A stretch of DNA of 64,000 nucleotides from Octopus sinensis. Lineage: Eukaryota. Positions 2,146 to 60,387 of the stretch are shown here, piece by piece. Below the pieces are notes generated by a model. That model ran no database searches. It had not been told where the DNA came from and saw nothing but the letters and a program-made list of their open reading frames with translations. Position 1 is the stretch's first letter; each line of letters begins with the position of its first letter. Where the stretch lies: contig NC_042997.1 in the NCBI RefSeq assembly GCF_006345805.1, forward strand, positions 208,072,001-208,136,000. The letters are read 5' to 3'. A program made the position numbers and the translations under genes.

Positions 2146-2480
2146 ATGGCTCAGTGGTTAGAGCGTCGAGCTTACGATCGTGAGGTTGTGAGCTCGAATC
2201 CCGGACCGGGCTGCGTGTTGTGTTCTTGAGCAAGACACTTTATTTCACGTTGCTCCAGTTCACTCAGCTGTAGAAATGAGTTGCGACGTCACAGGTGCCA
2301 AGCTGTATCAACCTTTGTCTTTCCCTTGGATAACACTAGTGGCGTGGAGAGGGGAGGCCGGTATGCATGGGCGACTACTGGTCTTCCATAAAACAACCTC
2401 GCCCAGACTTGTGCCTCAGAGGGTAACTCTCTAGGTGCAAAACCCATGGTCACTCATGACCGAAGGGGGTCTTTACCCTT
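2146..2480 (+). mobile_element. tRNA-derived SINE
   Basis: A box TGGCTCAGTGG and B box-like GCTCGAATCC in a tRNA-like head, followed by a SINE body (ttgagcaagacactttatttcacgttgctccag); flanked by (TA)n. Confidence 0.8.
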
Positions 2481-2485
2481 ATATA

Positions 2486-2515
<30 letters not shown>

Positions 2516-2519
<4 letters not shown>

Positions 2520-5500
2520 CGAGGTAGTCAGAGTAAGTAATAGAGTACTTAAGATTAGATTAGTGCTTCACCATAGGTCAGCTACTATCATCTCGGCATA
2601 TGCCCCTCAACCAGGGCTACCGGAAGGACAAAAAGACCAATTCTATGACACCCTATTGCGGACTACCTCGTTGACAAATGACAGTGACCTTCTCTTCGTG
2701 GCAGGGGATTTCAATGGACATGTTGGATGGCATGTCGGGGGCTTCCATGGCGTTCATGGAGGCTACGGTTTTGGCTCTCGTAATGAGGAGGGAACCAGGC
2801 TGCTGGAGTTCTGCGATGCAAATGACCTTATGGTCTGCAATACCAACTTCAGGAAACCCACCTCTCACCTAGTCACCTACCGTTCTGGCAGACACACTAG
2901 CCAGATTGACTACATCCTTGCCAGAAAAAGGGAAAGAGGGCTGCTTATAAATGCCAAAACCTTTCCAGGCGAAGAATGTACTCCTCAACATAGATTAGTA
3001 GTTAGCGACTTCAGGATCAGAGCTAAATGGTTGCCCAGAAGAAGACCTGCTTGGAGGAGAAGGGTCTGGAAGCTTAAAGATCCTGCAAATGGACAGAGAT
3101 TTAGAGACACTACTCGAAGCCTTTGACGAAATAGAAGGGGATATAGCTTCACTTAATGTGGAAAGCAACTGGAGATTTCTACGGGACAATCTGCTGACAG
3201 CCACTGACCAGATCTGTGGATGGAGCAAAGTACCATCTCGACCCAGAGTAACATGGTGGTGGAACACTGTGGTTGACAGGGCTATTAGACAAAAGAGACA
3301 GGCTTGGAAGGACTGGAAGAACGGTGGTAGCAGGGAATTGTATCAGACAGCCAGAAGGGAAGCTAGGAGACAGGTTTATTTAGCCAGAGGGGAAGCGGAT
3401 AAGAAAAAATTTGCCAATGTTCTGAGCCGTGAGGATGAAAGACTTGAGGTATTTCGTGTTGCAAGACAGTGTATGAGAGAGAATCGTGATGTGGTAGGAG
3501 AGAAGTGTGTTCGCATGGATGATGGTTCACTTGCGCTAAATGAGGATGCAAAGAGAGAGGTTTGGAGATGCCACTATGAAAGGTTGCTGAATAAAGAAAA
3601 TGATTGGGATAAAGAGAGTCTGCCGAATGTTGACCCAACAGAGGGACCAGCTATCCGAGTGATAGTTCCGTGTAGCTAAGGCAATTAGAAGCATGAAGAC
3701 AGGGAAAGCCCGGCCCATCAGGAATTACTGCAGAGATGCTCAAAATATCTGGCAGTGTCGGCTATAACCTAGTCACCCGTATAGTCAACCAGGTGATACA
3801 TGAAGGAGTCATACCCAATGACTGGTGCAGCAGCATAATAGTCAACTGCTACAAAGGTAAAGGTGATGCCCTAGATACAAATAATCACAGAGGTATTAAG
3901 CTGTTGGATCAAGTAATGAAGGTTACGGAGAGGGTCATAGCCCAACTAATTAGAGAGAGAGTTACTTTAGATGAGATGCAGTTTGGGTTCGTGCCAGGGA
4001 AAAGTACCACTGATGCTATATTCCTGGTAAGGCAGCTGCAGGAGAAATACCTAGCCAAAGATAAGCCCTTGTACCTGGCTTTCGTAGACATGGAGAAAGC
4101 TTTTGATAGGGTCCCCCGATCCCTTATTTGGTGGTCAATGAGGAAACTAGGGATAGATGAATGGCTGATGAGGACTGTGCAAGCCATGTACAGAGATGCC
4201 GTAAGTAAGGTTAGGGTTGGCAACATGTACACAGAACAATTCAAAGTAGAGGTTGGGGTCCACCAGGGTTCAGTACTCAGCCCCCTCCTATTTATCATAG
4301 TACTCCAGGCAATTACGGAGGAATTCAAGACAGGTTGCCCCTGGGAGCTCCTCTACGCTGACGACCTTGCTCTTATTGGTGAGTCACTATCAGAACTGGA
4401 GGAGAAGTTCCAGGTGTGGAAGGAGGGTTTAGAATCGAGAGGCCTTAGAGTTAACCTAGCTAAAACCAAAGTACTAATAAGTAGGAAGGTAGACAATCCA
4501 CAAATGTCTTCAGGAAGATGGCCCTGCTCGATCTGTAGAAAAGGTGTAGGTAGAAACTCTATAAGATGTACCCAGTGTAAGCTATGGACACATAAGAGGT
4601 GCAGCAATGTCAAAGGTAGGCTAACTGGGAAGATAGTTTTTGTATGTGGCAGATGCTCGGAGCATTAACCTCCGAAAATCTGCAGAAAACAACTTCCGTC
4701 ACTTTCCAGGGGGAAAAACTAGAAGTAGTTGATAGCTTCCGTTATCTAGGTGACCAAGTCAGTAGTGAGGTGGATGCGCTGAAAGTGTAACTGCTAGAAT
4801 AAGAATAGCCTGGGCAAAGTTTTTAGGAGCTCTTACCTCTGCTGGTGACTAAAGGCCTCTCGCTCAAAGTAAAAGGCAGACTGTATGATGCGTGTGTACG
4901 AACAGCCATGCTACATGGCAGTGAAACATGGGCCGTGACTGCTGAGGACATGCGTAAGCTCACAAGAAATGAAGCCAGTATGCTCCGATGGATGTGTAAT
5001 GTCAGTGTACATACTCGACACCGAGCACCTTGAGAGAAATGTTGTACCTAAGAAGCATCAGTTGTGGTGTGCAAGAGAGACGATTGCGCTGGTATGGTCA
5101 TGTGGCGAGAATGGATGAAGATAGGTGTGTGAGAAAGTGTCAATCCCTAGCAGTTGAGGGAACCCATGGAAGAGGTAGACCCAGGAAAACCTGGGACGAG
5201 GTGGTGAAGCACGACCTTCGAACTTTAGGCCTCACTGAGAAAATGACCAGCGACCGAGACCTTTGGAAATATTCTGTACGTGAGAAGACCAGGCAGGACA
5301 AGTGAGCCCAGCCCACTTATGAATGCCTTTCCTCCCTTGGACACAAAGACCTGTTGAGGCAAGCGAAGTCGATATAGAACCTCATCCGACGACAGGCACC
5401 CATGCCAACCCTCTCTGCTTGCGAAGACATGTTGGGGAAATCGAAATCGAAATTGAAACCGAATTGAACCAGCCAGGATCCCTGGTCTGGTGGTACGTAA

Positions 5501-6762: not shown

Positions 6763-7045
6763 CATTATTTACATTTGATGGATATTTGTCCTCATCTTGT
6801 TTGTTGTTAACACAACATTTCAGCTGATATACCCTCCAGCCTTCTTCAGGTGTCTTGGGGAAATTTCGAACCTGGGTTCTCATTCCTAAGGTATTTTTCG
6901 ACGTTATTATTATTATTAGGCTGGAGGGTATATCAGCCGAAATGTTGTGTTAACAACAAACAAGATGAGGACAAATATATTCGTCAAATGTAAATAATGT
7001 AAATAATGTACATAACTCCTCATCTCTTAAATATAGAACTGTATC
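6763..7045. repeat. Inverted pair of PLE-type terminal repeats with a hammerhead-like motif
   Basis: 6763-6842 is the reverse complement of 6919-7000; minus strand 6810-6853 reads ACAC-CTGAAGA-AGGCTG..CAGCT-GAAAT-GTT-GTGT. Confidence 0.7.
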
Positions 7046-7560: not shown

Positions 7561-9058
7561 CTAGTCATACACTACCTTTCACTTTGAGAGAGTCCTTTTG
7601 TTGCCACAGATTACGGACACGCAAGTGCTAGGGTGTGTCAATCGATATATCGCTGGAGCGGAGATGAATTACTGCTGTCTCTAGCAGTCGAGTGCCCATC
7701 ATCGACAAGACAGAACAAGGTGGAAATCATGTGATTCGGTGGAAATCATATGATTCGGTGGCCTCAGTGCTGAAGATTTATCTTTTTGCTACTGATATGA
7801 AGAAGAGGGCGTTCCAAAAAGCCTATGTGAGGGTCACTCTCATGGCAATTACTGCAGTAAAGTTGGTTCTAATGGAACATCCTTGTTTAAACGGGGATAA
7901 ATAATACCCCACACTAATAACAGACTGCATGGAATGAAGAACAGTTGCAAGAAGAACCAAAGAAAGAGGTCTTTAAGTGGTCACTTGATCTGCTAAAATT
8001 AAACAACCAAATCTCTCTCACATCATACCTTGCTGCCTTTAGTGTTTTGGTGAATAAATGTGGGCAGTCTTAGCCAGAGAATGTACCTGGGGTCCTCAGG
8101 TAATTTGCGTCTTTATTTTGAACTTCTTCATACACAATGGAAACAACTTGGATTGCTTAAGCTTCAGGACATCTGAAATTGAATATTTCAAAGGGGACAA
8201 GGCTTGTCAGGCCCAAGTGTAAAAGAGCTTCAACATCACCTTGATGGTAAATTCCCAGCTTTTTAAGAGAGGCTCAGAATCTTTAATGAAAAGGGTGTCG
8301 GACCAAGAGGAAATTTGTGGACATATTCCACCTGTCCTGGCTTTTGATGCTCAACAACAGAGTAGGGTTTGCTGACCAGGCTTTTTTACTGACCCGTGAC
8401 CATATCAGATGTTAGATTTTGGAGATTTCCATACTTGGATAGGGAGAAAGTTCCCCTAATTAAAACTGATGTCTTGCAAGAGTCACAGAACAAGAAACGG
8501 AGAGAAAGGGGGGAAGGTGGAGCAGAAATAATTGTGTGGCATTGTTAAGTGGATCTTGGTTGTGGCAGCTGGAAGAGGAGGAGGAGAAAAGAAGAGAAGA
8601 AAGACATACAAGCATCTTTGACCTTCAGTCTGATGAATCACACACTGACTCAGGGTCAAACAACAACAACAAGCAAAACATTGTTAGCTTTAAATGTTAC
8701 AATGGAATATTTCAGAAGAAGCAGATTTGGTGGATGGGAAATGGTATAATGAAAGGATAAGCACAACAAGATATGATGAACAGCATTAAGGTAGCATGAA
8801 GAAAGGTACCCAGGACATGCTGTGAAGTGGTTGGCACTAGGAATGGCATCCAGCAATAGAAACCATGCCAAAGCAGACACTGGGGTTCAATAAACACTTG
8901 TGGCTCATTGGAGCCAGTCAAAATTTGCACCCATTCCACAATGGAACAAGGGCTGTAAATGAGGATCAATTCTATTTCCTTTGTTTCTTGTAGAATATGT
9001 TTTTTGGTAAATCCAAGAATATCAACATAAAACAACAAATAACAAATACATCAACCAC

Positions 9059-9286
9059 CTTTACTATTTCTGTGTTGGAGGATAAACCACAAAAGTAAAC
9101 ATCTTTGATCCGGCTTGAATTTAGATCTGAGTAGTTTTTCACGGCTTCATACATAATTCCAGGTAATTTTTCAATGGGGTACCTCAATTTTCCGGCTCCT
9201 AATATAGGAAATGCAAGACTTTTTGCTCCCATTCTCTCCGCAGTTTCCAGACAAATGGTTATTATGCGAGTCAAGTTTGTCAGAAT
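9059..9286 (-). CDS. Exon of PARP14-like macrodomain gene (module A, macro C-terminal half)
   Basis: 228 bp, ttag acceptor and gtggtt donor, phase 0/0; ILTNLTRIITICLETAERMGAKSLAFPILGAGKLRYP contains the macro S(L/I)AFP.(L/I)G.G motif. Confidence 0.9.
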
Positions 9287-9856
9287 CTAAAAAAAATAAG
9301 TGTCTAGTAAATGGTAATAGACATTTTATTAAATTATTTTCTTATTACAGGAAGGAATCATTAAGTTGTAATAAATATATTCTCCCCTCACACTGTCATT
9401 CCTATCACTCTTTAGTCCTGCAAGAGACAAGGCAACCTCACTCATGTTCCTGCTACAATAAAACAGACCCAATCCACCATGTAAAATGGTTGTTGAATGA
9501 AGAGAGACAATGCAGACCCAAGAGGAGTCTTAGTGTTGGGGAGGACGACAACCTCTCTAGTGCTCGTGCCATGACAGAGAAAAACTCACCAATACAGAGA
9601 GTAAAACAGAGAAATATGTTTTATATAGTCTTATTATCAGTCACATAACTTTGTTAGGCCATGAGGCTTTTTTCCTTCTATTTATATAAAAGTGTCCTGT
9701 TCATCGATATCTTCTGCTTCCTTCCAATGATAACTTGGAAGACCAAATATTAAACAGGATGCTGTCATTTGCTTTATGATTCTCACACAACATGCATAAG
9801 GTTCTCTTCAAACATTAACTGTTTCAATAAATCAATATCATATGATTGATACTTAC

Positions 9857-10084
9857 TGAATCAGGGGGATATTTATCCCAGGGAGGTAATACCAGATGAA
9901 ATACATTCTTACAGTTGAGGTTATATCCTTTAGTGACGGCTATTTCAGACATAGAAATACCTCGAGGATATTTCTGGCAACATTCATCTTGTATCTCAGG
10001 ACCAGCAGCAAAAAAAATAAATTTGGAGATAGACCCTTTGTCAAGCTGGAGATGTTCATTGGAGCTGTTAACGATGACATCAAC
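9857..10084 (-). CDS. Exon of PARP14-like macrodomain gene (module A, macro N-terminal half)
   Basis: 228 bp, ctag acceptor and gtaagt donor; VDVIVNSSNEHLQLDKGSISKFIFFAAGPEIQDEC...TKGYNLNCKNVFHLVLPPW. Confidence 0.9.
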
Positions 10085-10365
10085 CTAGAAAAGTAATTAA
10101 TGGTAAACAGCTAAGGAACATTCCGTGGAGAGAAGAGAGATACATTATTGCAGTTGATATTGTTGTTAAGAAAGGCTCTACAGAATGGCTGTAGTAAGTT
10201 TGAGGTTGTTAAAGTTAGCAAAAGATATACTCAAGATATCAGATGTGAAGGAAATAAAATGTTTGAGTTTGATTGAGAAAATGTTTTAATTAACTGTAAT
10301 GATTCCTTATTTGGAAATGAAATAACAATTAAATATAAATAAGTTACATGAATCTATTTACTCAC

Positions 10366-10502
10366 AGATGCATTAGAAATTGAATCAATCATTAGGTTTA
10401 TTTTGATGCCAGCATTTTCTCTGGGTGTCACATTAGTTCTGGGTGTCATGGAGGATGATTCCTGCGGTAGATCAGGAAGGGATGGGTTTGATGAAGGGGT
10501 TG
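10366..10502 (-). CDS. Exon of PARP14-like macrodomain gene (module A, linker and first strands)
   Basis: 137 bp, ttttcag acceptor and gtgagt donor, phase 1/0; TPSSNPSLPDLPQESSSMTPRTNVTPRENAGIKINLMIDSISNAS joins in frame to VDVIVN. Confidence 0.85.
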
Positions 10503-10616
10503 CTGAAAATAAACAAATATCAACATACATACATACATGGATATAGATTTTAAATCATAAAGTCTGCTCTATTCTTTAGGGTGTGCTTCTCATTCTGTTA
10601 TATGTTATATTAACAA

Positions 10617-16375: not shown

Positions 16376-19300
16376 CTTTCTTTATTGGCTACCAAGGCTA
16401 AATACAAAACATAAAGGATGATTCTACAAGGGTTAGTGGGGTTAAACGTCTAAATAGCAAAACAAAACAACAATTAACAAAGAGATTAAACGAACAATGT
16501 TCTTCTCCAATAGGGAGGAGTTCCACCGAAGAGTGAGCAAAAGAACATCACACCCTTTGGACCCCCTAATACCAAAGGTACCTCATGTAGGCACCCCTCT
16601 CCTCCTCATTCCATCCGGCCTACAGACCCACACTTAGAGTAGGCCCATTCACGTGGGCCATTCTTGACATATTCACCCACCTTTCAACAAACTTACTGAG
16701 TGACAGTTCTTACCCCTCCAGTCTCAATTTCCTTTGCAGGAGGAACTTGAAAGGTCAATTGAGGCCTTGGCCAAAGAGGAAGGTACCTGTCTTCAACTCT
16801 TTCAATTGTGTCCACCACACAACCACTTTCAATAGCCACCACACAGAGAAAAACTGTCCTTCCCAGCCAAAGGAAAGAGGTGGGATGATCTTCATGATGG
16901 ACTTGGATGATAGCTAAATCTGTCTTACATGTGACAATAACTGTTTGACAAAAGTTTATAAGTCAGCAATGCGTGGACACTGTAGGAGAGCATACAGAAC
17001 GGATTCATTGCTCCACTGGCATCTCATACATGCTCATCTGACTGCACACCTGTGCCTGTAGAGCTTATTGTGAACTGGCAGACCCCCCTGGTAGCACTGC
17101 CAGGTCATGGATTTCTGGAAGTTGTCCATAAGCCCTGGCCCAAAAATCTTCTGAAAGAGACCAGCCAGTGGATCCCTCTCAACACCCAAAACCTCTGTGA
17201 CAACGTCGCACCTCTTGCCATCTACTAATCCCCTATAGAACTCCAAAGTGGAACTTCCACTGACTGCATCACCCCACTAGCCAAGGGTTGTTAGCACATG
17301 GAGACACTCTAGGTGCTAAGCATCCTTCTTCGGTCTACGCCTGATCCAGGACTGTTGCCCCATCAAAGAGACAATCTGTGGAAAAGTGCATCCAACAAAT
17401 GGTGACCACACCTACTCACTGTTCAGGTATTTCTGGAGATGTTGCAGCCTCAGCACATGTCTGTGCATCATGAGCCATAGCATACCCAGTCCACCATGCA
17501 ATGAGTTCTGACAGCAAATGGATCATCTGACAAGTGGTACATGCCCCTTCCACAGGAAGCAGAAGAGGAAGCCCACCAGCCTGTTCAGCTATGAAGCAGC
17601 GCATGGGTCGTCGACAGTCAGGTAGTAGTATATGATGGATGGGATGTACGTATTTGTCACCTCCTCCCGACCTTTCAGGGATAGCTTCCTCTCCGCTCAT
17701 TTGTGGTTGAGACTGGTTACCCTGTCTGTCATTTCACCCTAGTTTGTGTCCACTTGGAGGTCCACATCAAGCCAGACCAACTTAATCAGTCCTTCCATCA
17801 AACACCCCGCAATGCTGTCACTCGGCAAGGGCCTGCCTCTCCAGGAGCCGAGCTGCAGGCTCACTGACTTCTAGCTAATCACTGCTCCTGTCATCGCTTC
17901 ATATTCCATTAGGATAGTGTCAACCATTTTGATTTCCAAGACATCCAACACTATCATGGTAACATCGGCCGCATATGAACTTTCCGTATCTTAGTTCACA
18001 AGGGAAGCCCCTTGAAACATCCAACACCTGCAGTAATGGCTTGAGTACCAGTATGTAGAGAAGGGGTGAGAGTGGATATCCTTGACAGACTAAGCATGCG
18101 ATGCTAAATGATTCCGACATGTGGCCATTTACTTTGACCTCCGAACAGATGTCGCTGTACATTGTAGCAGTCCAGCCTCTGAAAACAGGACCAAAACCAG
18201 CTGCTTCAAGGACAGCTTCCAAGTACTGATGGTAAACCCATTTGAAAGCTTTCAATTGATCCAAATTGATCAGGGCCCCTCCCATGCCAGGTTCTTTACC
18301 AACCTTCTCTATGATGTATTGCATGAGGTAGAGGTTGTCATGGATAGATCTGTTGGGAATAGTGCAAGGCTGCACATTACCCACCAATCTGTCAATGACA
18401 AGTGTCAACTTCTTTGCTAAAACCTTAGTCAAAATTTTGAAAAATGCAGAGTTACAGTCCTAAAGTTATCAACAATGTCACCCTTGTTTGGATCCTTTCT
18501 CAGTAGTACCACTACACCTCAGCTCACAGACCTGTGTATTCTTACATTCTGCTGCCAGTTGCGGTAGACACCCTACAAAAGCTCACCAAACTAGTCTGGA
18601 ATATAAAGCTTGAAGGGCAAACCATCCTATCCCAGAGACTTTTCCCTCATGCAACTAGCCAATGCATCACATATATTCTTCAGCTGTAATTGGCATTTTG
18701 CAGAACTCAACCTTCCTGGATGAAAGCCATGACAGAGCATCAAGTGGGGAAGTGAAGTTCACCTCCACCTCCAGACTACCACATGTCCCATACAGTTCAG
18801 CAAAGTGCCACTGAAATTCTGCACAAATCTGCTTGCACTCGTGTAGCATCTACCTGTCCCACCTCTCAAAGACTGAACTGAAGTTTCATTACCACATAGC
18901 ACCTCAGCCACCCAGTGCCATCGAACAGCTTTCATTCCTTCCTGTTTTAGAGCATGTGCCCTAGCTCTCACAATGCAACCTTTATGCTTGGTGTTGAAGA
19001 ATTGGTTCAGAACCAATCTCGCTACCAGCACATCGGTCACTATGCTTCTACTGAGTGCCTCTTCCAATATCTTAACTAGATCTCCCTCTACTCTAGTCTT
19101 CTTTATCACTAGTTGTCTGCTAAATTTTACAACTTCTACTGTAACCCCCCATTTTAGGGCCACCCACCATCGGTTGTTGACAACTGCACCTGTCAACTTT
19201 CGATGGACCAACCTGCTAAGTCAGTATCTGAAAGCTTAATGTGCTGGGAAGGACGTATTCTGCTTCCAGTATCCGGGACCCTGCCTATGAAGCAGGTCAA

Positions 19301-22210
19301 CCAGACAGATCTGTATGGTCAACCATACAGATCTGTATGGTTGACCCTAGGTCAACCATACAGATCACAAATTTGTGATCTGTGTAGCTGATGAGTTCAA
19401 ATTGTGGACAGCCTTTGCTATCCCTATCTGCTGGCCTACAAAATATCCAACACTGTTTACCTATGTCCACACTGGAGCAATCAGGAAATCCAGTCTGGAC
19501 CTGTCAGCCAGGTGGAAACAACTGAGTAGGTTTGCAAAGCTTGTGCACCCATTTTCCTATCCATTAGCCATGCCTAGTACACACATGCATCCAAGATGGT
19601 GTTCCAGTCGCACACTAACACTAATGAGTGAGACAACCCTAGAAAAACATCAAAAGATTTGAAGAAATTCGGCTGTTCGATCCAGAAATTCAGCTGTCCC
19701 GATATACAGTGACCAGTCTGAAAGCACTGTCTCAATTATCATTCATGCCCAGGACCACCGACTTGCCTTCCAGGTCCAGGAAGACCAACTGTATCTCAAG
19801 ATCCAGGCCTTTCCTGAACAACACCCACCCACTATTCCTGGTTGACTAAGAGATGCAAACATCTCAAAATAGTCAAAAATGGGTACTAAGGTGTGTGCCT
19901 CCATGATGCTGGTCTCACTGATGGCTATTACATTTAAATTCAGCCACCTGAGGTCATTGAGCAAGTGACCTTGCTTCCAGGATGACCTCACCACATACAT
20001 TAATGCGACCCACTCTTAGCACTGCCATATTGGCCTAAAAGAAAGGAAAGAAAGATGAGGAGTGTTACTTAACCTCCTGGTGCTGTTGGAGATCACGTGG
20101 TCCCACCTCTATTTCTTTGTTGGTCTGCGTTGGGAACCCTTATAGAATCGTTGTATTGGCATTTACTTGAGAGATTCCTACATCGTCTAGAAGGGCATCC
20201 CTAATTGTTTGGAAAGTGTCCAAATCCATCCTCCCCATCATTAAGTCTTTTGGCACATGGCATGTGTTAGTCCAGAAGATTCTTCCCCCCCCCCTACCTT
20301 TTCCAATGATTCTCCTTTGTGATAAGATGGCCATCAGTTCTTTGCTGGCCCTCCTTACTAACACAGAGTGAGCTGCCTGTGTCACTGTTTTTTGCTGTTC
20401 TTGTTGCGTTGGTGGTGTAAGTTTGCTTTTGGGATTTTTTTCCTGTCTGCAGTGGAGTTCTTGGTGCTTGTGGCGCTTTAGTTGATGATTGTGATGCTGC
20501 AGGAGTTGTCTGGGTGTGTGTGTGTGTGTGTGTGTAGTTCCTTTGCTATCTTGTTTTGGTGCAGGGTAAGATGTCTTGCCTTTGTGACTTCTTTTCGGTT
20601 GTTTTTCTAGTTTACTCTGATCCCTGTCCTCATCACCTTTCATTGTGGTAGAACCAGTGTCTGTTTTAACCTCCTCCGCTCTCCTGTGCAAGTGAATTCG
20701 TGTTTGTATGTGTATCTTTTTTCTGCATGCTTGTCTGTCAGTGGTGGGGTTGTTGAGGCTGGTTACAAGGTGTTGGTTTTCATGGTTGACCTCTCCGACG
20801 GTTTTCCTGCTGGTGCTGTTGTTACACCTGCCGCCACCATTGTTGCTGTTTTTGCCGCCTTTCCTGTTGTTCATGGTGATGTCTTTTGTTTTCCCAGCCT
20901 TAATCAACGGAAGGTCCCCACATCCCTGTAACGTTTTGATGAGGGCAGCATGCTTGTAGGTGTGTTGCATCACCACAAGCAAAGCAATGAGTCATACAGC
21001 GCTCAGTGATCAAATGTAATTTCGTCCCCTCTTTGAGGCAGACATGGTCTGGGATGTTCTCCAAGGCTTATGGTTTTATTTGGATTAGCAATTCCAAATC
21101 CATCCCAATCTTGTCTTCTCTTTGCATCCGTTGAACTTTAAGGAGGAAGGTGTTGCTGCTCTCCACAATCACACATCTCAACCACCTCCAGATATTGATA
21201 CCTTGTGTTACTCTGGGGATTCAAACTTTTATTGTTTGTGGTGCCCATGTAGGGCAGGCACATTATAAGCTGGTCAGTTTTACCGGGTCCCAATGAATAC
21301 TTCATGGCCAGCTCTTCTGTTTTAAAAAGGGCCGAGATGGTGCCAAAACTCAGGGCCCTTCTTGATTGACCTCAGTACCATCTCCACTTGAAGAAGGTGT
21401 GAGTGTTGTTCTGCACTCCGAGTCTGTACTGAGACACACTTATACTTCACTGTTCTCTTCTCAGTTTCTACCTCTACTTTGGCTGGGATTGCAAGGTTAG
21501 CCCAGGTTCTTTCTCTTTTGATGAGTTTGTGCGCCAGGGTTAACATCTGTTTCTTTGTTGGCGGTGTCTATCTCATAGTACTTTTGTTGGCATTTCGCAG
21601 CTGTTGCAAAGGTCCTTGTTCTGCTCTCACAGTTGATGGTGGTGATGGAATCGTTCATGCTGTTACTGCTATTGTTACTCCTAAATACAAACATCTCTCT
21701 GTTGCTCGTGTTGGCGTTGGTATTGGTTGTGTTCTCATTGATGTTTTTGTTGTTGTTTTTCTGTTATGCTTCTCTGCTCTGTGTTGTTGGAGTTGTTAAT
21801 TTCTGTGTTGATATCAGCTATCATTTCATTTCCCACATTATTCCTGTTTGGGGAGTTGGCAGTTACATTTTCATTATCTATTCGACTATCGAGTGAATGT
21901 GTGTTCTCCATTGTGTCGCTTTCCTCTGTTGTGATACTTCTTTATTCTTGCGAATACTTTTATCGCTATCCATAGAGTCTGTGGTGCTTTTGAATTTGTT
22001 ATCAATTTTGTTCCTGAAATTGTTTCTTGTGTCAGTGAAAATTGCATTTTCATGATGTTTCCTGCTGGCACAAACTGGTTTGTTTTGCGTTAGAAAGATA
22101 CACACCTCCACACCATTTTTCATTTGCAAATGTATAAACATTTCATAAATTCTAATATTTGGCCACAAAGCCCCAATATTATTCAATTCTTTTAGGGGGG
22201 GGGTCAAAGA
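16376..22210 (-). mobile_element. Tx1/L1-clade LINE, near full length, decayed
   Basis: LLNDLRWLNLNVIAISET (APE), GAVVNNRWW, RSIHDNL, GGALINLDQLKAF and QGYPLSPLLY are homologous to the element at 49020-54556; ORF1 remnants at 20140-22000; AATAAA then (TAT)n at the 3' end. Confidence 0.88.
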
Positions 22211-24218: not shown

Positions 24219-24273
24219 CTTTTGAATGAGCTCCTTCATTTACTGGTTTATTTAGGAGATATTCCTCAAATTT
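24219..24273 (-). CDS. 55-bp linker exon of the macrodomain gene
   Basis: tttttacag acceptor and gtaaac donor, phase 0/1; KFEEYLLNKPVNEGAHSK+G bridges exon 43222 (phase-0 end) to exon 10502 (phase-1 start) and plausibly supplies the last macro helix. Confidence 0.8.
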
Positions 24274-25760: not shown

Positions 25761-26051
25761 AATGTTAAATTTACAAAGGACTGGCATCATGTCCAGGTGG
25801 GGAACATATACGCCAATGAAACTGGGAAACCGACCCTTATGAGCAAGGCATGGCTTTAGAAAGAACAACAACAACAACAAATGCAAAATTGGTACGTGTT
25901 CTAGTTTTGTTTTTACAACACCAGTCTTGATATTTATTCATTAGACCTTGCATATATATATATATAAATATATATATTGATAAAAATAGTAAGACAACAA
26001 AAGAAAGAAAGAGACCTCGATATTATGTAAATAGAGGAATTTATCTGTAAA

Positions 26052-26269
26052 TGCAATATGTGGCAATTATTCGGTAGCCAAGATAAAACTCTCAGTTTCA
26101 GATGCCGAGGTGAAAATCCACGCCACCCTCTCTTCAGTTATGCTATGAAAATTTTCATAGCATTTTTTCTGATGGCCAGGTAACTGAAGAGATGGTAGAG
26201 TGGATTTCCACCCCGGCATCCGAAACTCAGAGTTTTATCATGGCTACCAAATAATTGTCACATATTACA
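26052..26269. repeat. Palindromic element with ~89-bp arms and a hammerhead-like motif
   Basis: 26052-26140 is the imperfect reverse complement of 26181-26269; inner palindrome atgctatgaaaattttcatagcat. Confidence 0.85.
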
Positions 26270-26624
26270 GTTATATATATATGTATGTATGTATATGTAC
26301 AGCCAGTGGTTTGCCCTGTACCAAGGAAGGGAAATTACCCAAAAACCATTGGTCTGCAGGTACCACCAAGGCTGGAAGGGGACCATTAATTCCCTTGCAC
26401 ATAGTATACAGACACAGACTATGTACTGGTAGTCAGCTGGAAATTATGTTTTCCTGGGGCTAAACAGTAGTAATATCATCCTAAGCAGGACTGCCACTTT
26501 ATGTTGGTAAATAGACTTTACTTTAAAGAACTGTAACTAGATATCTCTCGTTCATCGATTTAAAATCAATTGTATTTCTCTTTACATATATATATATATA
26601 TGTATATGTATACATATATATATA

Positions 26625-27179: not shown

Positions 27180-30100
27180 CTGCTGTCCCTCATCCCAGGG
27201 TCTCAAGGGCTCACACCTCCCACACCTTCAGGGTTGGCACACTGAAAGGTAGGTCTAGGGAGATGTGTCAATACGTGCTGCCTCCAAGAAGTAAAGTGGA
27301 GAGGAGGTTCCACTAGGTTCCTCACAGGCAAAGAACACGGGTACAAGATTTTCTGGGCAGGGAACACTGACAGGGTCAGGGGTGTGAGTATACTTCTTTT
27401 GGAGAAATGGGTTGATAAGGTAATCGAGGTAGTCAGAGTATGCGACAGAATACTTAAGATTAGATTAGCACTTCATCTTGGCTTAGTAACCATTATCTCA
27501 GCCTATGCCCCTCAGTTGGGACTACGTGATGGACAGAAAGACCGATTCTATGACACCCTCTTGCAGACTACCTCATTGACAAATGACAGGGACCTTCTCT
27601 TTGTGGCTGGTAACTCCAATGGACATGTTGGACAACATGCTGGGGGCTTCCATGGCATACATGGAGGCTACGGATTTGGCTCTCGCAATGAGGAGGAAAC
27701 CAGGCTGCTGGAGTTCTGCAATACTAACTTCAGGAAAGTCACCTAGTCACCTACGATTCAGGCAGGTACACTACCCAAATTGACTACATCCTCACCAGAA
27801 AAAGAGTAAGATGGCTGCTTATTAATGCCAAAACCTTCCCTGGTGAAGAATGTACCCCACAACATAGACTAGTAGTTAGCAACTTCAGGATCAGGGCTAA
27901 ATGGATACCCAAAAGATGACCAGCATGGACAAGAAGGGTCTGGAAGCTTAAAGATCCTGTGAATGGACAGAGATTTAGAGACATATTATTCGAAGCCTTT
28001 GATGAAATAGAAGGGGATACAGCATCACATGATTTTGAAGACAACTGGAGGTTTCTACAGGACAATCTGCTGAGGGCCACTGAGCAGATCTGTGGATGGT
28101 GCAAAGTCCCCTCTCGACCCAAAATAACGTGGTGCTGGAACAATGTTGTTGACAGGACCATCAAGGAAAAGAAACAGGCATGGAAGGACTGGAAGAACAG
28201 TGGTAGCAGGGAAGTGTATCAGACTGCCAGAATGGAAGCTAGGAGACAGGTTTATTTAGCCAGAGGGGAAGCAGATAAAAAAAAATTTGCCAATGTTCTG
28301 TGCCGTGAGGACCAAAGACTTGAGGTATTTCGTGTTGCAAGACAGTGTGTGAGAGAGAATCATGATGTGGCAGGAGAGAAATGTGTCCGTATGGATGATG
28401 GTTCACTTGCACAAGATGAGGCTACAAAGAGAGAGGTTTGGAGACGCCACTATGAAAGGTTGCCAATGTCGACCCCACTCAGGGACCAGCTATCCATTTT
28501 GACAGTACCTTGGTAGATAAAGCAATTAAGAGTATGAAGACAGGGAAAGCCCCCGGCCCATCTGGAATCACTGCAGAGATGCTTAAAATATCTGGCAGTG
28601 TTGGCTATAGCCTAGTCACCCGTATAGTTAACCAGGTGATACACGAAGCAGTCATACCCAATGACGGGTGTAGCAGCATAATAGTCAACTGCTACAAAGG
28701 TAAAGGTGACGCTTTAGATACAAATAATTACAGAGGTATCAAGTTGTTGGATCAGGTAACGAACGTCACGGAGAGGATCATAGCTCAACTAATTAGGGAG
28801 AGTGTCAGTCTGGATAAGATGCAGTTTGGCTTCGTGCCAGGCAGAAGCACCACTGATGCTATATTTCTGGTAAGACAGCTGCAGGAGAAATACCTAGCCA
28901 AAGATAAGCCCCTGTAGCTGGCTTTTGTTGATATAGAGAAAGCCTTTGACAGGGTCCCCCCGGTCCCTTATCTGGTGGTCAATGAGGAAACTAGGGATAG
29001 ATGAATGGTTAGTGAGAGCTGTTCAAGCCATGTACAGGGATGCTGTCAGTAAGGTGAGGGTTGGCAACGAGTACACTGAAGAATACAGGGTAGAGGTAGG
29101 GGTCCACCAAGGTTCAGTCCTCAGACCCCTCCTATTTATCATAGTCCGCTGGGCAGTAACAGAGGAATTCAAGACTGGATGCCCTTGGGAGCTTCTCTAT
29201 GCTGATGACCTTGCTCTAATTGCTGAGTCACTATCAGAACTAGAGGAGAAGTTTCAGGTGTGGAAGCAAGGATTAGAATTGGAGGGCCTTAGAGTCAACT
29301 TGTCTAAAACCAAAGTCCTGATAAGTAGGAATGTAGAAAACCACAAACGCCTTCAGGTAGATGGCCCTGCTCGATCTGCACCAAGTGTAAGCAATGGACA
29401 CATAAGAGGTGCAGCAATGTCAAAGTAAAGCTAACTGGGAAGATAGTTTTTGTATGTGGCAGATGCTCAGGAGCAATAAACTCTGAAAATGTGCAGAGAA
29501 CAACTTCTGCCACATTCCAGGGAGAAAAACTAGAAGTAGTTGATAGCTTCCATTACCTAGGTGACCAAGTCAGTAGCGAAGGAAGGTGAGCTGAAAGTGT
29601 AGCTGCTAGAAAAAGAATAGCTTGGGCAAAGTTCAGAGAGTTCTTACCGTTGCTGGTGACAAAAGGCCTTTCACTCAGAGTAAAAGGTAGACTGTATGAC
29701 GCATGTGTATGAACAGCCATGATACATGGCAGTGAAACATGGGCTGTGACTGCTGAGGACATGTGTAAGCTCGCAAGGAATGAAGCCAGTATGATCCGAT
29801 AGATATGTAATGTCAGTGTGCATACTCGACAGAGTGTTAATACCTTGAGAGAAATGTTGGACCTAAGAAGCATCAGTTGTGGTGTGCAAGAGAGACGACT
29901 GTGCTGGTATGGCCATGTGGTGAGAATGGATGTGGATAGCTGAGTGAAAAAGTGCCACACCCATGCGGTTGAGAGAACCTGTGGAAGAGGTAGACCCAGG
30001 AAGACCTGGGATGAAGTAGTGAAGCATGACCTTTGAGATTAGGCCTCACCGACGCAATGACTAGTAACTGGGACTTTTGGAAATATGGTGTGCTCGAGAA

Positions 30101-30920
30101 GACCCGGCAAGCCAAATGAGACCATAACCCGTGGCCTATGCCAGGAGTGTAACCAGCCCACTTATGCATACCTTTCCTTCATTAGACACTATACTCTGCT
30201 TCCAAAGCTCTATTGAGGCAAGGGAAATCGAAATCAAAATCAAATTCGATACCAGCACAGCATGACTGGCATCCTTGCCAGTGGGGTAGTAAGAGCACCA
30301 TCTGAGCATGATCGTTGTCAGGGCCACTGACTGGCTCCCATGCTGGTGGCATGTAAAATGCACCATTCAAGCGTGACTGTTATGAATGTCATTCTATTGG
30401 CACCTATGCTGGTGGCACATGAAAAACAAGATTTGAGCAAGGTCGTTGGCAATCCCACTAGACTTGCTCCTGTGCAGGTGGCACATAAAAACACCATTTG
30501 AGCGTGACCGTTGCCAGTACCACCTGACTGGCCCTCATGCCGGTCGTATGTAAAAGTACCCACTACACTCTCAGAGTGGTTGGCATTAGGAAGGGCATCC
30601 AGCTGTAGAAACTCTGCCAGATCAGACTGGAACCTAGTGCAGCCATTTGGCTTGCCAGTCGTCAGATTTTACGACACCTGCTTGCAGAATACCTCGTTGG
30701 CGAATGACAGGGACCTTCTTTTTTTGGCTGGTGACTTCAATGGACATGTTGGACAATATGCAGGGGGCTTCCATGGCATACATGGAGGCTATGGTTTTGG
30801 TTCCCACAATGAGGAGGGAACCAGGCTGCTGGAGTTCTGCGATGCAAATGATCTTATGGTTTGCAATACAATACTAAACCATGCCAGCATGGTAAGTGGA
30901 TTTTAAACAATGATGATTAT
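27180..30920 (+). mobile_element. RTE-clade LINE, near full length, inactivated
   Basis: APE starting RVGTLKGRS, then RT LYADD, C-terminus, 3'UTR and tail; several stops and frameshifts; extra APE fragment at about 30660-30870. Confidence 0.93.
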
Positions 30921-32959: not shown

Positions 32960-35058
32960 CACCACCACCACCATCATCATCATCGTTTAACATTTGTTGT
33001 CTATGCTTGTATGGGTTGAAGAGTTTGACTGGGGCTGGCAAGCTGTAAGGCTGCCCTTCCTAATGCTCACCACTCCAAGAGTGGTGACCATTAGGTATCT
33101 GCCATGGCTGTGATTTTTCATGGATTGCTGGGTAATTTTTGCTTCCATGAGGCCCAATGCTTGAAAGGCACTCTCTACATGCCAGTTATGTGACACCAGC
33201 ATCAGCTATGTCTATGATTTGACTTGGTTTGACAAGTCTTCTCAAGCACAGCATTTCGCCAAAGGTCTCAGGGACCAGTGCTTGGCTATCACAGCCCATG
33301 TTTCACTGCCCTCTAACATGGCTGTATGCACAAAGGCATCAAACAATCTGCCTTTCACTCTGAGAGAGAGGCCTTCATTGCCAGCAGAGGTAGGATCTCT
33401 CTGAACTTTGCCCAGCATAATCTTATTCTTACAGCGATGCTCTCAAAGCATCCACCTCCACTACTAACTTGGTCACCTAGATAATGGAAGCTATCTACTA
33501 CCTCTAGCTCCCAGGGCAGTTGATGGAGTCTATTTCCTACACATTTTTAGCGTGTATTGTACCTGTGCATCTCCCACATACAAAAGCTAGTTTCCCTGTT
33601 AACCTTCCTCTGATATTGCTACATCTCTTATGTGTCCATTGCTTGCTCTGGGTACATCTTATGGAGTTTCTACCTATGCCTTTTCTACAGATCGAGCAGG
33701 GCCATCTATCTGAAGGGATTTGTGATTTGTCTGCCTTCCTACTTATTAAGACTTTGGTTTCTGCGAGGTAAACTCAAAGGCCCTTCAATTCTAAGCTTTG
33801 TTTCCATACCTGGAATTTCTCTAGTTCACATAGTGATTCAGCTATAAGAGCAAAGTCATCAACAAAGAGGAGCTCCCAGGGGCAGCCGCTCTCAAATTCC
33901 TCTGTTATTGATTGGAGGACTATGATGAACAAGAGATGGCTGAGGACCGAACCCTGGTGAACCCCTACTTATACCCTGAATTCTTCACTGTACTCATAGC
34001 CAACTGGTAGCATCCCTGTACAAGGCTTGTAAAGCTCTCACTAACCACTCATCTATCCCTAGTTTCTGCACTGACCACCAGATAAGAGGACTCTGTCAAA
34101 AGATTTCTCCAAGTCAACAAAAGCCAAGTACAGAGGTTTATCTTTGGCTAAGTATTTCTCCTGCAGCTGTCTTACTAGAAATAAAGAACAAAGCCAAACT
34201 AGATTTCATCTAGACTAACTCTCTCTCTGATTAGTTGGGCTACAACCCTCTCTGTAACTTTCATCACCTGATCCAACAATTTGATACCTCTGTAATTATT
34301 TCTATTTAGGCATCACCTTTACCTTGGTAGCAGTTGACTATTAAGCTGCTACACCAGTCATTGGCTATGACTTCCTTCATGAACCACTTGATTCACAACA
34401 TGGGTGACTTGACCATAACCCACATATTAAGCATTTCAATGGTGATTCCTGAAGGGCCGAGAGATTTTCCTCTCTTCATATCCTTAATTGCTTTATCTAC
34501 CAGGGTATTGTCCATTCAGGGAGCTGGTCCTTCAGTTTTGTCAACCTTTGACAGACTCTCCTCCTTGCATTCATTCTCTATGTTCAGCAGTCTTTCATAA
34601 TGGCTTCTCCAAGCCTCTTCCTTTGCAGAATCACTAAAACAAGTGCACCATCATCCAAATGGACACATTTCTTTCCAGTGACATCACGATTTCCCCTCAC
34701 ACACTGTCTTGCAATCTGAAATACTTCAGGTCCTTGTTCCTCGTGTTGCTGAACTTTGGCAAACTTCTTCATTTCTGCTCGTCCCTTGGCTATATATCTG
34801 ACTCCTAACCTCCCTTCTGGCTGTCAGGTACAGTTCCCTGCTACCTCCAGTCTTCCAGGCCTGTTTCTTTGCTCTAATGGTCCTGTCTACAGTATCGTTC
34901 CACCACCACATTACCTTAGGTTTTGAAGGGACTTGTACCAGCCACAGATTTAGCCTGTGGTGGTCTACAAACTGTCCCTCAGGGATTCTCAGTAGCCTTT
35001 TATATCACAAGTCCTCCCTTTCGTTAAATTTCTCAATTAGGATGTCCCTAAAGCACTG
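32960..35058 (-). mobile_element. RTE LINE, decayed
   Basis: Reverse strand MWWWNDTVDRTIRAKKQAWK, EVFQIARQCVR, RT and zinc-finger remnants; tail near 32960. Confidence 0.9.
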
Positions 35059-42920: not shown

Positions 42921-43221
42921 CAAATTTTAGGGTCAATTTTGCACGTTCGAATTGTGCTTCTCTCTATTGTACAGAACTTTCTAGAGATAAGAGTTGAAGA
43001 AAACCAAGCTAACCTACGTGTATGCCAGAAAAAATCACAAAACACATTAAAGATTCCAATATTACTGAACAATTCTAAGACATCAATAAAGGATCCCATA
43101 TTTTATTTTATTTTTCAAATTTTATTCCATATTTTATTTCATCATAGAATCATTGGGGGTGGAGAGGGTAAATTCCAAAAATATCAACATCAAACAACAA
43201 ACAACAAATACATCAACCAAC

Positions 43222-43449
43222 CTTTGCTATTTCTGTGTCTTGAGGATAAACCACAAAGTTTACAACTTTGATCTGGCTTGTATTTTGATTTGAGTAGTTT
43301 TTCACGGCTTCATACATAATTCCAGGTAATTTTTCAATGGGGTACTTCAATGTTCCAGCTCCTAATATAGGAAATGCAAGGCTTTTTGCTCCCATTCTCT
43401 CAGCCTTTTCCAGACAAGTGGTTATTATATGAGTCAAGTTTGCCAGAAT
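43222..43449 (-). CDS. Exon of PARP14-like macrodomain gene (module B, macro C-terminal half)
   Basis: 228 bp, atag acceptor and gttggt donor; ILANLTHIITTCLEKAERMGAKSLAFPILGAGTLKYP...VNFVVYPQDTEIAK. Confidence 0.92.
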
Positions 43450-44028
43450 CTATAATAAATAAGTGTCTAGTAAATGGTAATAGACATTTTATTAAATTAT
43501 TTTCTTATTACAGGAAGAAATCATTAAGTTGTAATAAATATATTCTCCCTTCACAACTGTCATTCCTATCACTCTTTAGTCCTGCAAGGGACAAGGCAAC
43601 CTCACTCATGTTGCTGCTACAATAAATCAGACCCAATCCACCGTGTAAAATGGTTGTTGAATGAAGAGAGAGAATGCAGACCCAAGAGGAGTCTTTAGTG
43701 TTGTTGAGGACATGACAACCTCTCTAGTGCTCGTGCCATGACAGAGAAAATCTCACCAATACAGACAGTAAAACAGAGAAATATGTTTTAATATAGTCTT
43801 ATTTATCAGTCACATAACTGTTGTTAGGCCATGAGGCTTTTTCCCTTCTATTTATATATAAAAGTGTCCTGTTCATCGATATCTTCTGCTTCCTTCCAAT
43901 GATAACTTGGAAGACCAAATATTAAACAGGATGCTGTCATTTGCTTTATGATTCTCACACAACATGCATAAGGTTCTCTTCAAACATTAACTGTTTCAAT
44001 AAATCAATATCATATGATTGATACTTAC

Positions 44029-44256
44029 TGAATCAGGGGAATTTTCATCCCAGGGAGGTAATGCCAGATGAAATACATTCTTACATTTGAGGTTATATCC
44101 TTTAGTGACGGCTATTTCAGATGCAGAAATACCTCGAAGATATTTCTGGTTACATTCATCTTGCATCTCAGGACCAGCAGCATTGAGAATACTTTTTGAG
44201 ATAAACCCTTTGTCAAGCTGGAGTTCTTCATTGGAGCTGTTAACGATGACATCAAC
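44029..44256 (-). CDS. Exon of PARP14-like macrodomain gene (module B, macro N-terminal half)
   Basis: 228 bp, gtag acceptor and gtaagt donor; VDVIVNSSNEELQLDKGFISKSILNAAGPEMQDEC...TKGYNLKCKNVFHLALPPW. Confidence 0.92.
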
Positions 44257-44537
44257 CTACAAAAGTAATTAATGGTAAACAACTAAGGAACATTCCATGG
44301 AGAGAAGAGAGATACATTGTTGCAGTTGATATTGTTGTTAAGAAAGGCTCTACAGAATGGCTGTAGTAAGTTTGAGGTTGTTAAAGTTAGCAAAAGATAT
44401 ACTCAAGATATCAGATGTAAAGGCAATAAAATGTTTGAGTTTGATTGAGAAAATGTTTTAATTAACTTTAATGATTCCTCATTTGGAAATGAAATAACAA
44501 TTAAATATAAATAAGTAACGTGAATCTATTTACTCAC

Positions 44538-44674
44538 AGATGCATTAGAAATTGAATCAATCGTTAGGTTTATTTTGATGCCAGCATTTTCTCTGGATGT
44601 CACATTAGTTTTGGGTGTCATAGAGGATGATTCCTGTTGTGGACCAGGAAAGGATGGGTTTGGTGATGGGATAT
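44538..44674 (-). CDS. Exon of PARP14-like macrodomain gene (module B, linker and first strands)
   Basis: 137 bp, ttttcag acceptor and gtgagt donor, phase 1/0; IPSPNPSFPGPQQESSSMTPKTNVTSRENAGIKINLTIDSISNAS. Confidence 0.85.
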
Positions 44675-45099
44675 CTGAAAATAAACAATTAAACATTCTT
44701 CTCTCTCTTAAAAGAACTTCTTTATTCCATATAAATAGTAATGATATTCCTTTCTGAAAATATGATTTAGCAAGAGAATACGTACTAACTTGTAGTCATC
44801 CCCCCCCCCACCTTTTATATAGCGACAAGGCTATATAAGATTATTTCCATCTATTTCTTCTACCACATGGACTATAAATACATTGAAGAACATACTTGAA
44901 ACTTTCAAAGTCTGAAAACAGTGAAAATGGTTAGTAAAATGTGATCTTCCTCCTCCTTTTTTTCTTAAAACATTTATTAAAACAGGCTTCAGATGGTGTA
45001 GATTCCAGTAAGTTCGGAATTTGTTGTGAAAAAAATGTTTTTGAGGAAGTGGAGAAAGGAGTTTCAAAAATTCACACCAGTCAAATTTGGTTCCTTTGG

Positions 45100-45338: not shown

Positions 45339-46361
45339 AACTTTTGGGAAAATGGTTATTTTTAAATGAAAATTTTCACAAATACCTTTAAGAGTCTGTA
45401 AATTACGATAATATTGGAATTTGATATGAATATAAAAATTACAGACATAAATACTGATACATGTCAGATATTTGTTTTGAAAGATTTTTTATTTTTTACA
45501 ACAAATTCCAATAGAATTGGAATTTATACCATCTGAAGCATATTTATAGAAAATCTCATTAAAATTATGTTTTTCTTAAAATTTTGAGGAAAAGAAATCT
45601 TTGCGAAACAGATTTATAGGCATGGTGCAGGTAATGCTCTGGATAGTTGCTGAATATCATTCCACATGTGTGACCAAAAGTCCATAATAAACATGTAGTC
45701 TTTAAAATCTTAATCATATATATATATATACATATATATAGATGTGTTGAGCGTTGAAGTATAAAGACGTGCTTTTACTCATCTCCGCCGGTCAGCAGTA
45801 AGCTTCACAGCTACAAACGAAATTCACCATCTATATATATAAAACTGAGAATGTGTGAATACCTAAAACTTGAGAACTACACAACCAGTTTCATTTAAAT
45901 TTTACACATGCCATGACACTACATGGACCTGAAGGTTCATGTAGTGTCATGGCCAAAACAATTTTTAACTTCTTGCCTAGGGCAAGCCCACAGCAATATC
46001 ATATCTTCTCCACTATTTCAGTATTACGTGTCAAAAGTGAAAGAAAAAGATCTCTCTATTGTAATGTCAGATACTTTCACTTTAATACTGAAACTATTAA
46101 AATGAAACTATTATATAACAGGGATGAACTGTTACTGGACATCCATTCTGCTAGAAGAAGATCCACTGTGGTCTTATATGCTACACCACTGGTTTTAAAT
46201 TGATACTAATCAAATTAATATTCAATTTTTCACCCTTATTATTTTAAATTTAAAGTTACATGTATATATATATAGATGTAAGTATATATATATATATATA
46301 AACTTAGATAAAACTTAGATATGTTTCGACCAAAGATAGGATTATCTAAATCCTGTTTAAG

Positions 46362-51097: not shown

Positions 51098-51163
51098 CCT
51101 TCCCTCTTGCCTCTTGTCTCTTCCAATGTAGTGTGTGAAACACAATTTTCGTAAACATCAATT

Positions 51164-56035: not shown

Positions 56036-56039
56036 TTTT

Positions 56040-56078
<39 letters not shown>

Positions 56079-56099
56079 CGAGAGAGAGAGAGAGAGGGA

Positions 56100-57975: not shown

Positions 57976-57982
57976 ATATAGA

Positions 57983-60243: not shown

Positions 60244-60387
60244 CATATATGGATGTATATATATATATAATATATATATATATATACACACACACATACA
60301 TGTATATCTATACATGCTTTTGTATACATGTATATGTATAGATGTATTTCCATAGATATAGATGTATATGTATACATGTATGTGTAG

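Follow-up and report, generated by a model that had tools for sequence, protein, structure and literature searches.

The window analysed in this work is a stretch of 64,000 bp of the Octopus sinensis genome (contig NC_042997.1, positions 208,072,001 to 208,136,000), which carries two copies of a three-exon macrodomain cassette, copy A at 9006-10526 and copy B at 43167-44696. We consider that both belong to a pool of about 50 cassettes in PARP14-like genes, where short-tract gene conversion is likely and diversifying selection appears to keep about one quarter of the macrodomain codons variable, notably in loop 1 beside the predicted pocket. This is the explanation we favour as the probable one, with considerable room for doubt. 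An initial annotation of the window had described the two segments as duplicated macrodomain (ADP-ribose reader) modules of an invertebrate under diversifying selection. They are indeed copies (93.5% identity across 1533 alignment columns), and a PARP14-like gene was confirmed, but they are no isolated duplicate pair: instead, they are two of dozens of cassettes sharing a variant pool.

Diversity and patchwork ancestry of the cassette family

A search of the genome with the exon-2 protein gave 68 matches at 67 loci, with 48 on contig C1: 39 within 205.4-208.1 Mb (2.75 Mb, both strands), four near 211 Mb and five near 41 Mb. A DNA search for the cassette gave 45 matches among 40 scored candidates. 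There were 30 terminal ADP-ribosyltransferase (ART) exons in the genome, 22 of them on contig C1, which means at least 22 genes, and macro1 exon b had 18 matches; a Pfam PARP search of the genome missed the split ART exons of the cluster. Annotated proteins contained one to five cassettes each. All these family counts are lower bounds from a single assembly. From the 67 fetched loci, nine identical or near-identical duplicates and one partial copy were dropped, and 57 copies were kept. The mean identity within the O. sinensis pool was 77%, and 55 copies of exon 2 encoded 53 distinct peptides, with 43 distinct loop-1/helix-1 strings. Proteins named O. vulgaris and O. bimaculoides contained similar cassettes, whose best match was at 80-82%; for Argonauta hians the figure was 72%. 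One A. hians protein (P0106) had two macro2-type modules which were near-identical by eye; this suggests separate homogenisation or recent duplication in the Argonauta lineage.

Nucleotide diversity in the 57 copies was 0.036 for intron 1 and 0.030 for intron 2 (31 colinear copies). For exons 1, 2 and 3 (57 non-identical copies, kappa 2), synonymous diversity (piS) was 0.15, 0.09 and 0.18, and non-synonymous diversity (piN) was 0.21, 0.12 and 0.13, respectively. Four-fold-site diversity was 0.12-0.13; in codons with conserved amino acids it was 0.120 (0.076-0.173), about four times that of the introns, and this excess came mainly from exons 1 and 3, as exon 2 reached only 0.045. Because of this excess, introns were rejected as a neutral reference or clock for the family. 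Introns were more diverse close to exons (0.073 at up to 40 bp) than further inside (0.023-0.028 at more than 80 bp; rho -0.15, p=3e-5). In the other exons of the same genes, the proportion of synonymous differences (pS) was 0.07-0.08, and point estimates of non-synonymous over synonymous proportions (pN/pS) were 0.103/0.070 for macro1, 0.093/0.079 for the KH region and 0.129/0.075 for ART (L079-L138). As pN exceeds pS outside the cassettes too, these point estimates indicate rapid protein change across the whole gene. CpG hypermutation and write-back of edited RNA were tried as sources of the exon excess and rejected: CpGs are few, and all twelve change types were raised about 2.5-6 fold. The per-site changes in exons were 0.47 for A>G versus 0.32 for T>C.

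The ancestry of the copies was a patchwork. Among 30 colinear copies, mean r2 was 0.25 for sites 1-2 bp apart but 0.07 for those 31-60 bp apart, a PHI-like test found less incompatibility among close sites than in permuted data (p=0.0005), and the minimum number of recombination events (Rm) was 103 among 208 sites, with Rm of 29-33 inside each single exon. Five segment trees had only 1-3 of 27 splits in common, few of which were well supported, and the nearest neighbour of copy A differed segment by segment. Exons 1 and 2 have 36 differences between A and B; for 33 of them both bases were seen in other cassettes, and none was private to A. The cassettes are mosaics, most likely from short-tract gene conversion. 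Homogenisation of the introns by conversion, which had been suggested from the pair, is judged likely from these mosaic data together with the family diversity.

Introns about 3% apart could also be read as giving the true age of recent duplicates, whose exons raced ahead by positive selection without conversion. The intron trees are short, and the non-synonymous divergence (dN) of the pair exceeds its intron distance (p ~1e-7), as this reading would have it. It does not agree with four-fold sites about four times as diverse as introns, with the pS of other exons of the same genes, with a 3' end of intron 2 that is 20-27% different between classes, or with segment genealogies that disagree. 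The synonymous excess and the mosaicism largely refute it, and we regard it as very improbable.

Another possibility is that the introns are conserved for a functional element, such as an RNA gene or a splicing or regulatory signal. Most copies have an intron 1 of 281 bp, and diversity is very low in the middle of intron 2, which would fit with it. But several unrelated cores are seen in intron 2; copies of one class are about 90-99% identical there, and large insertions are tolerated. No Rfam family came near threshold (best E=0.39), so that no hidden RNA gene was found, and the top 40 scored matches of the intron-2 core were all inside cassettes. Copies L047 and L060 differed at 14 of 698 positions in intron 2 (684/698 shared), while the adjoining exon 3 was 25% apart. 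The intron-core classes and this pattern favour homogenisation over constraint, and a functional element seems highly unlikely. A subclass from the 41-Mb cluster and its unplaced twins (L047, L050, L051, L053 and L062) had exon 3 more than 20% diverged, with introns 95-98% identical to other classes.

Selection on macrodomain codons

Because heavy recombination makes trees unsafe, a site-independent likelihood was used instead of tree-based codon models. In the final test, which used a grid and let mutation depth vary freely, frame-intact exons were analysed (55 exon-2 and 44 exon-3 sequences), and calibration was by coalescent simulations with free, block-wise and no recombination (n=180 nulls). 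An earlier calibrated run contained frameshifted exon ends, and the figures relied on are from the rerun with frame-intact exons. For the macrodomain, a class with a ratio of non-synonymous to synonymous change (omega) above 1 gave a likelihood-ratio statistic (LRT) of 14.2, exceeded in none of the 180 nulls. With indel-adjacent codons masked it was 10.5, and for exon 2 alone 10.8, each exceeded in one of 180. Codons in the omega>1 classes made up 25-31% of the macrodomain; those flagged in exon 2 were 11, 13, 15 and 16 (loop 1), 22 and 25 (helix 1), 33 and 68. A term for multinucleotide mutation was fitted to zero and the result was unchanged. We infer diversifying selection on about one quarter of the macrodomain codons. 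The selection claimed in the initial annotation is thus supported once the whole family is analysed, but the pair on which the claim was built does not by itself show dN significantly above dS.

Conversion was also followed in a toy model of 50 cassettes, with parameters that were chosen and not fitted. Conversion alone, also when homology-dependent, gave flat diversity at 0.03 and no exon-intron contrast. As exons do exceed introns, some uneven conversion is needed. When rare variants had an advantage at 20% of codons (results from 5/8 settings), diversity was 0.03-0.04 in deep intron, 0.08-0.15 at synonymous and 0.15-0.18 at non-synonymous sites. When 75-85% of tracts were centred on introns and selection was absent, it was 0.027-0.032 in deep intron, 0.06-0.07 near exons, 0.12-0.14 at synonymous and 0.06-0.07 at non-synonymous sites.

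Several points weigh against diversifying selection. The intron-centred model without selection reproduced the intron gradient and the synonymous level, the mean omega of the macrodomain was about 1.0, and dN/dS of the pair was not significant (given below). By a minimum-variant count, N/S ratios were 0.66-0.83 for exons 2 and 3, and exon 3 alone gave a weak, uncalibrated result (p=0.02-0.035). The site test is our own Dirichlet-multinomial likelihood, an approximation after the genomegaMap method. For the macrodomain, the p-values of its parametric versions ranged from 1e-4 to 1e-7, but these chi-square values were rejected as anti-conservative, since null LRTs reached 14.1 and 17.3 and one of 15 gamma-null replicates exceeded the observed 14.0; for this reason only the simulation-calibrated test was counted. 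Eleven of the 57 copies, located on unplaced contigs, may be alleles. Four-gamete counts may be raised by recurrent mutation, yet this would give no distance dependence. Of the 16 sites flagged in the earlier calibrated run, only about 7 lie in segments which we take to be pocket-lining, with no clear enrichment. The nearness of loop 1 to the pocket is predicted from sequence and secondary structure, and loops are variable in general.

The first three of these points fit with conversion that starts mainly in introns, so that the exons, being less often homogenised, keep older variation and protein diversity reflects relaxed constraint in a redundant family. We hold this to be unlikely. In the relaxed-constraint model non-synonymous diversity was about half of synonymous, but in exons 1 and 2 of the cassettes piN equals or exceeds piS. 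The support for the omega>1 class is above that of nulls in which mutation depth varies freely between sites. The exons themselves are as heavily recombined as their Rm values tell, and pocket residues stay invariant while their neighbours vary. Selection is indicated only by the omega>1 class and by a piN that reaches or exceeds piS while half of the codons are constrained.

The two cassettes of the window and their gene

Both copies have minus-strand exons of 137, 228 and 228 bp with GT-AG intron ends; intron 1 is 281 bp in both, and intron 2 is 570 bp in A and 579 bp in B. Substitutions between them amounted to 56/592 in exons (9.5%) versus 24/851 in introns (2.8%; Fisher p=1.2e-7), in accordance with the few percent of intron difference noted before. 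Changed codons, non-synonymous to synonymous, were 9:2 in exon 1, 14:1 in exon 2 and 12:4 in exon 3, the last count leaving out 8 codons of a frame-shifted stretch. They match the counts by eye in the initial annotation, which were about 9-10 versus 2 for the 137-bp exon, 14 versus 1 for the 228-bp N-half exon and about 13 versus 4 for the C-half exon. The five multi-nucleotide codon pairs listed there (CAT/GAA, TTT/AGT, TTT/AAT, TGC/AAC and ATG/GCA) and the contrast between GSISKFIFFAAG and GFISKSILNAAG were found in the pair as well.

However, dN was not significantly above the synonymous divergence (dS) in the pair: dN/dS was 1.13-1.48 over all exons (p=0.15-0.41) and 2.2-2.9 for exon 2 alone (p=0.09-0.23), and it was rejected as a proof of selection. 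As about three quarters of coding sites are non-synonymous, the non-synonymous excess is about what site numbers lead to expect. The synonymous divergence of the pair (7-8%) also exceeds its intron divergence (p=0.004-0.015), and therefore exons more divergent than introns are no proof of selection.

Copy B exon 2 was 100% identical to an O. sinensis protein named PARP14-like (P0009), and by tblastn both cassettes of the window map into this protein, B as the second macrodomain and A as the third. Copies A and B are tandem domains of one PARP14-like gene. Its parts in the window are as follows, all on the minus strand.

44538..44674, minus strand: cassette B exon 1, linker and first strands, 137 bp (splice sites, tblastn to P0009)
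44257..44537, minus strand: cassette B intron 1, 281 bp, the intron with family diversity 0.036
44029..44256, minus strand: cassette B exon 2, N-half of the macro2-type domain, 228 bp (Pfam Macro E=3.8e-11; 100% to P0009)
44182..44226, minus strand: exon 2 codons 11-25, loop 1 and helix 1, with six putative omega>1 sites (11, 13, 15, 16, 22, 25) around the invariant Gly17
43450..44028, minus strand: cassette B intron 2, 579 bp; the family has several unrelated types of core, of which this is one
43222..43449, minus strand: cassette B exon 3, 228 bp, for the C-half of the macrodomain
24219..24273, minus strand: 55-bp linker exon, which joins B to A in one frame (P0009 sequence)
10366..10502, minus strand: cassette A exon 1, 137 bp
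10085..10365, minus strand: cassette A intron 1, 281 bp
9857..10084, minus strand: cassette A exon 2, 228 bp (Pfam Macro E=2.7e-11)
9287..9856, minus strand: cassette A intron 2, 570 bp; its seven small deletions are probable assembly errors
9059..9286, minus strand: cassette A exon 3, 228 bp; the compensated frameshift at ~9076-9094 is a probable assembly error

Pfam models found in P0009 an N-terminal RRM of the PARP14 type (PF23085, E=3.5e-10), three Macro stretches and a PARP domain (PF00644, above cut-off), and detected no KH domains. P0009 is a macro-PARP in having at least two macrodomains N-terminal to the PARP catalytic domain. No WWE match at E<=0.01 was found by Pfam in four octopus proteins (P0009, P0001, P0002 and P0021), so these are PARP14-like without the full vertebrate PARP14 architecture. 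The motifs HGT and GVYFA, candidates for the catalytic motifs of a mono-ART (His, Tyr and a non-Glu third residue), occur in P0009 and most paralogues. Macro 1 of P0009 carries NAAN and GIF, and thus has the loop-2 aromatic residue. In the terminal ART exon of this gene (L135, contig C1 ~207,984,700) a one-base deletion, probably an assembly error, accounts for the odd C-terminus of P0009. A loose contig end at 10084 in run X13, which we guess to be RNA, reads to us as the junction of exons 1 and 2 of copy A. Contigs of this run covered exons deeply and introns barely; contig depth is no measure of expression or copy number.

Copy A probably has defects in the assembly. Its intron 2 showed seven gap events against B, every one a deletion in A, and its exon 3 has the compensated frameshift listed above. 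The missing intron-2 bases were restored in contigs from other runs, which may derive from paralogues; at position 9091 all covering depth in 4/4 runs was without the extra base of A; and the frame of the shifted stretch was read at no other of the 67 loci. Since contigs from four runs contradict these indels and no other locus reads the frame, they are probably assembly errors. Several family copies have one-base indels absent from their identical twins, and among the contigs of the runs none spanned the copy A stretch. These observations could be extended to the claim that the differences and the mosaic as a whole come from long-read error and mis-assembly of a repeat cluster, which we think extremely unlikely. 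Errors would neither concentrate in exons nor reuse variants, and the base of A was found in other cassettes at 14/14 differences of exon 1 and 22/22 of exon 2, that is 36/36. Proteins named O. vulgaris and O. bimaculoides also have the same variable residues. Because the states of A recur in other cassettes, the A/B substitutions look real.

The window also contains mobile elements. An open frame of 459 codons at 38386-39765 (minus strand) in an intron of the gene matched DDE_Tnp_1_7 (E=6e-82) and has a C-terminal zinc finger; it is presumably a transposase of the piggyBac type, and apparently young. Fragments like reverse transcriptase/endonuclease of retroelements were located at 2392-5310, 16656-19671, 27246-30274, 33289-34978, 46362-47840, 51155-53879 and 56026-60307, several of them 75-92% alike. 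Five palindromic stretches of 240-370 bp (6763-6999, 26039-26282, 45339-45584, 57798-58167 and 62777-63033) and a direct repeat of 286 bp (35069-35354/35951-36236, 97%) are likely small mobile elements.

Predicted function and comparison with known systems

The structure model of one cassette protein (P0030) had a predicted local distance difference test score (pLDDT) of 88, and its best Foldseek match was 3q71 (E=4e-19, root-mean-square deviation 1.6), which is human PARP14 macro 2 with ADP-ribose. In phmmer, 3q71 had E=5e-27 versus 1e-11 for 4abk (macro 3) and 3e-10 for 3q6z (macro 1). Asn6, Asn9, Gly17, His63 and Trp69 of exon 2 were invariant in 55/55 sequences, while neighbours of the invariant pocket residues take 5-7 amino acids; Gly17 would correspond to the human pocket glycine G1044. 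For macrodomains with hydrolase activity, PMC10221186 names two features: in loop 2 a hydrophobic residue followed by an aromatic one, and Asn/Ser and Gly on the flanks of loop 1. The loop-2 aromatic residue was seen in 0/47 parsed cassette strings, which read G-x-L-K/R/N or had a one-residue deletion. Human PARP14 macro 2, which is without hydrolase activity, is termed a reader (PMC10499325). Because the fold matches PARP14 macro 2 and the hydrolase residue is missing, the cassettes are likely non-hydrolase readers of mono-ADP-ribose. The one-residue deletion in loop 2 was present in 10/51 exon-3 sequences (L013, L014, L017, L021, L024, L031, L032, L034, L036 and L049) and removes a glycine of the predicted pyrophosphate loop; these cassettes may be non-binding or altered.

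By analogy with human PARP14, the gene would combine an eraser, several readers and a writer of mono-ADP-ribose. A PARP14-like protein is reported from skin mucus of O. vulgaris (PMC11431876). An immune role of the cassettes would agree with mammalian macro-PARPs and with the evolutionary pattern. Clustered expansion, recombination and omega>1 sites, which are among the features of a pathogen-driven diversified immune family, were found here.

The gene structure, the minimum copy number, the diversity profile, the mosaic ancestry and the fold are results of the analysis; the explanation we favour adds four inferred steps to them. Firstly, non-allelic conversion would be frequent, in tracts of some tens up to low hundreds of bases, and together with unequal exchange it would homogenise any sequence that is free for this, leaving intron centres about 97% identical. 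Secondly, conversions that erase rare amino-acid variants would be selected against, so that exons stay diverse, and nearby synonymous and near-exon intron sites would hitchhike. Thirdly, the cassettes would serve as non-catalytic mono-ADP-ribose readers like human PARP14 macro 2, placed between a hydrolase-type macro 1 and a mono-ART. The fourth step is the weakest: the driver might be conflict with pathogens, over the ADP-ribosylated targets that are read or over escape from antagonists.

A wider speculation is that octopus has a germline-diversified repertoire of intracellular ADP-ribose readers, comparable with the major histocompatibility complex (MHC), in which micro-conversion reshuffles more than 50 cassettes, each PARP carries one to five of them, the variable loop determines the ADP-ribosylated proteins of host or pathogen that each enzyme engages, and the loop-2-deleted subclass acts as decoys. 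We consider this conceivable but doubtful. To our knowledge, octopus is without interferon-type adaptive partners. The arms races of mammalian macro-PARPs involve three genes; at least 22 genes with about fifty cassettes in octopus would extend conflict over ADP-ribosylation to molluscs, on a far larger scale. The cassettes are also a natural panel for asking whether, and by which residues, a reader macrodomain can tell apart the proteins that carry the ADP-ribose, and they are a clear case of introns misleading as a neutral clock.

PARP14 homologues of molluscs were already known, and three tandem macrodomains were taken as ancestral (PMC10221186). In the literature searched, neither an expansion of macro-PARPs in octopus nor macrodomain cassettes shuffled by conversion were described, though subscription papers or supplements of genome papers may list the expansion; a 2026 review on PARP14 has no mention of mollusc, octopus, cephalopod or invertebrate in its accessible part. 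Vertebrate PARP14, PARP9 and PARP15 are alike in having RRM, a hydrolase-type macro 1, further macrodomains of reader type and ART (PMC4038475, PMC10221186, PMC10499325). They are alike, too, in positive selection in macrodomains and elsewhere in the gene, and in gene birth and loss. Humans have three genes with seven macrodomains of three ancient clades, whereas octopus has at least 22 genes and at least 48 cassettes of one macro2-type lineage, and the third macrodomain of the octopus gene is a macro2 copy, unlike in vertebrate macro-PARPs. The selected surfaces in primates were reported as distinct from the ADP-ribose site (PMC4038475); with four flagged sites in loop 1, octopus may differ. 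The term "gene conversion" is absent from the accessible part of that primate paper, whereas the octopus cassettes are likely conversion-shuffled.

The SpTransformer (SpTrf, Sp185/333) family of sea urchin is similar in its roughly fifty clustered members, its mosaic sequences for which duplication and conversion were invoked, and some dN/dS above 1 (PMC5491942, PMC8634487). SpTrf proteins are anti-pathogen effectors induced on challenge, whereas the octopus cassettes are folded, intracellular, enzyme-linked domains known here from sequence. In exon segment switching of snake three-finger toxins, intron segments are also similar and exon segments variable, and a fixed fold has a variable surface (PMC2474615). 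Those toxins are secreted and encoded by single-domain genes, whereas in octopus the repeated unit is a domain cassette, which recurs inside single large genes and from one such gene to another. Alleles of MHC class I are patchworks whose introns are homogenised, and under gene conversion divergence is highest at selected sites. Such mosaic divergence under conversion has been treated in a preprint (bioRxiv 10.1101/2025.10.29.685298). The octopus cassettes share with MHC-type systems the shuffling of variants in short tracts and a peak of diversity at selected codons that decays into introns. Those cases concern alleles or two to three paralogues, whereas the octopus cassettes are paralogues, dozens in number, found on both strands and in three places along one contig.

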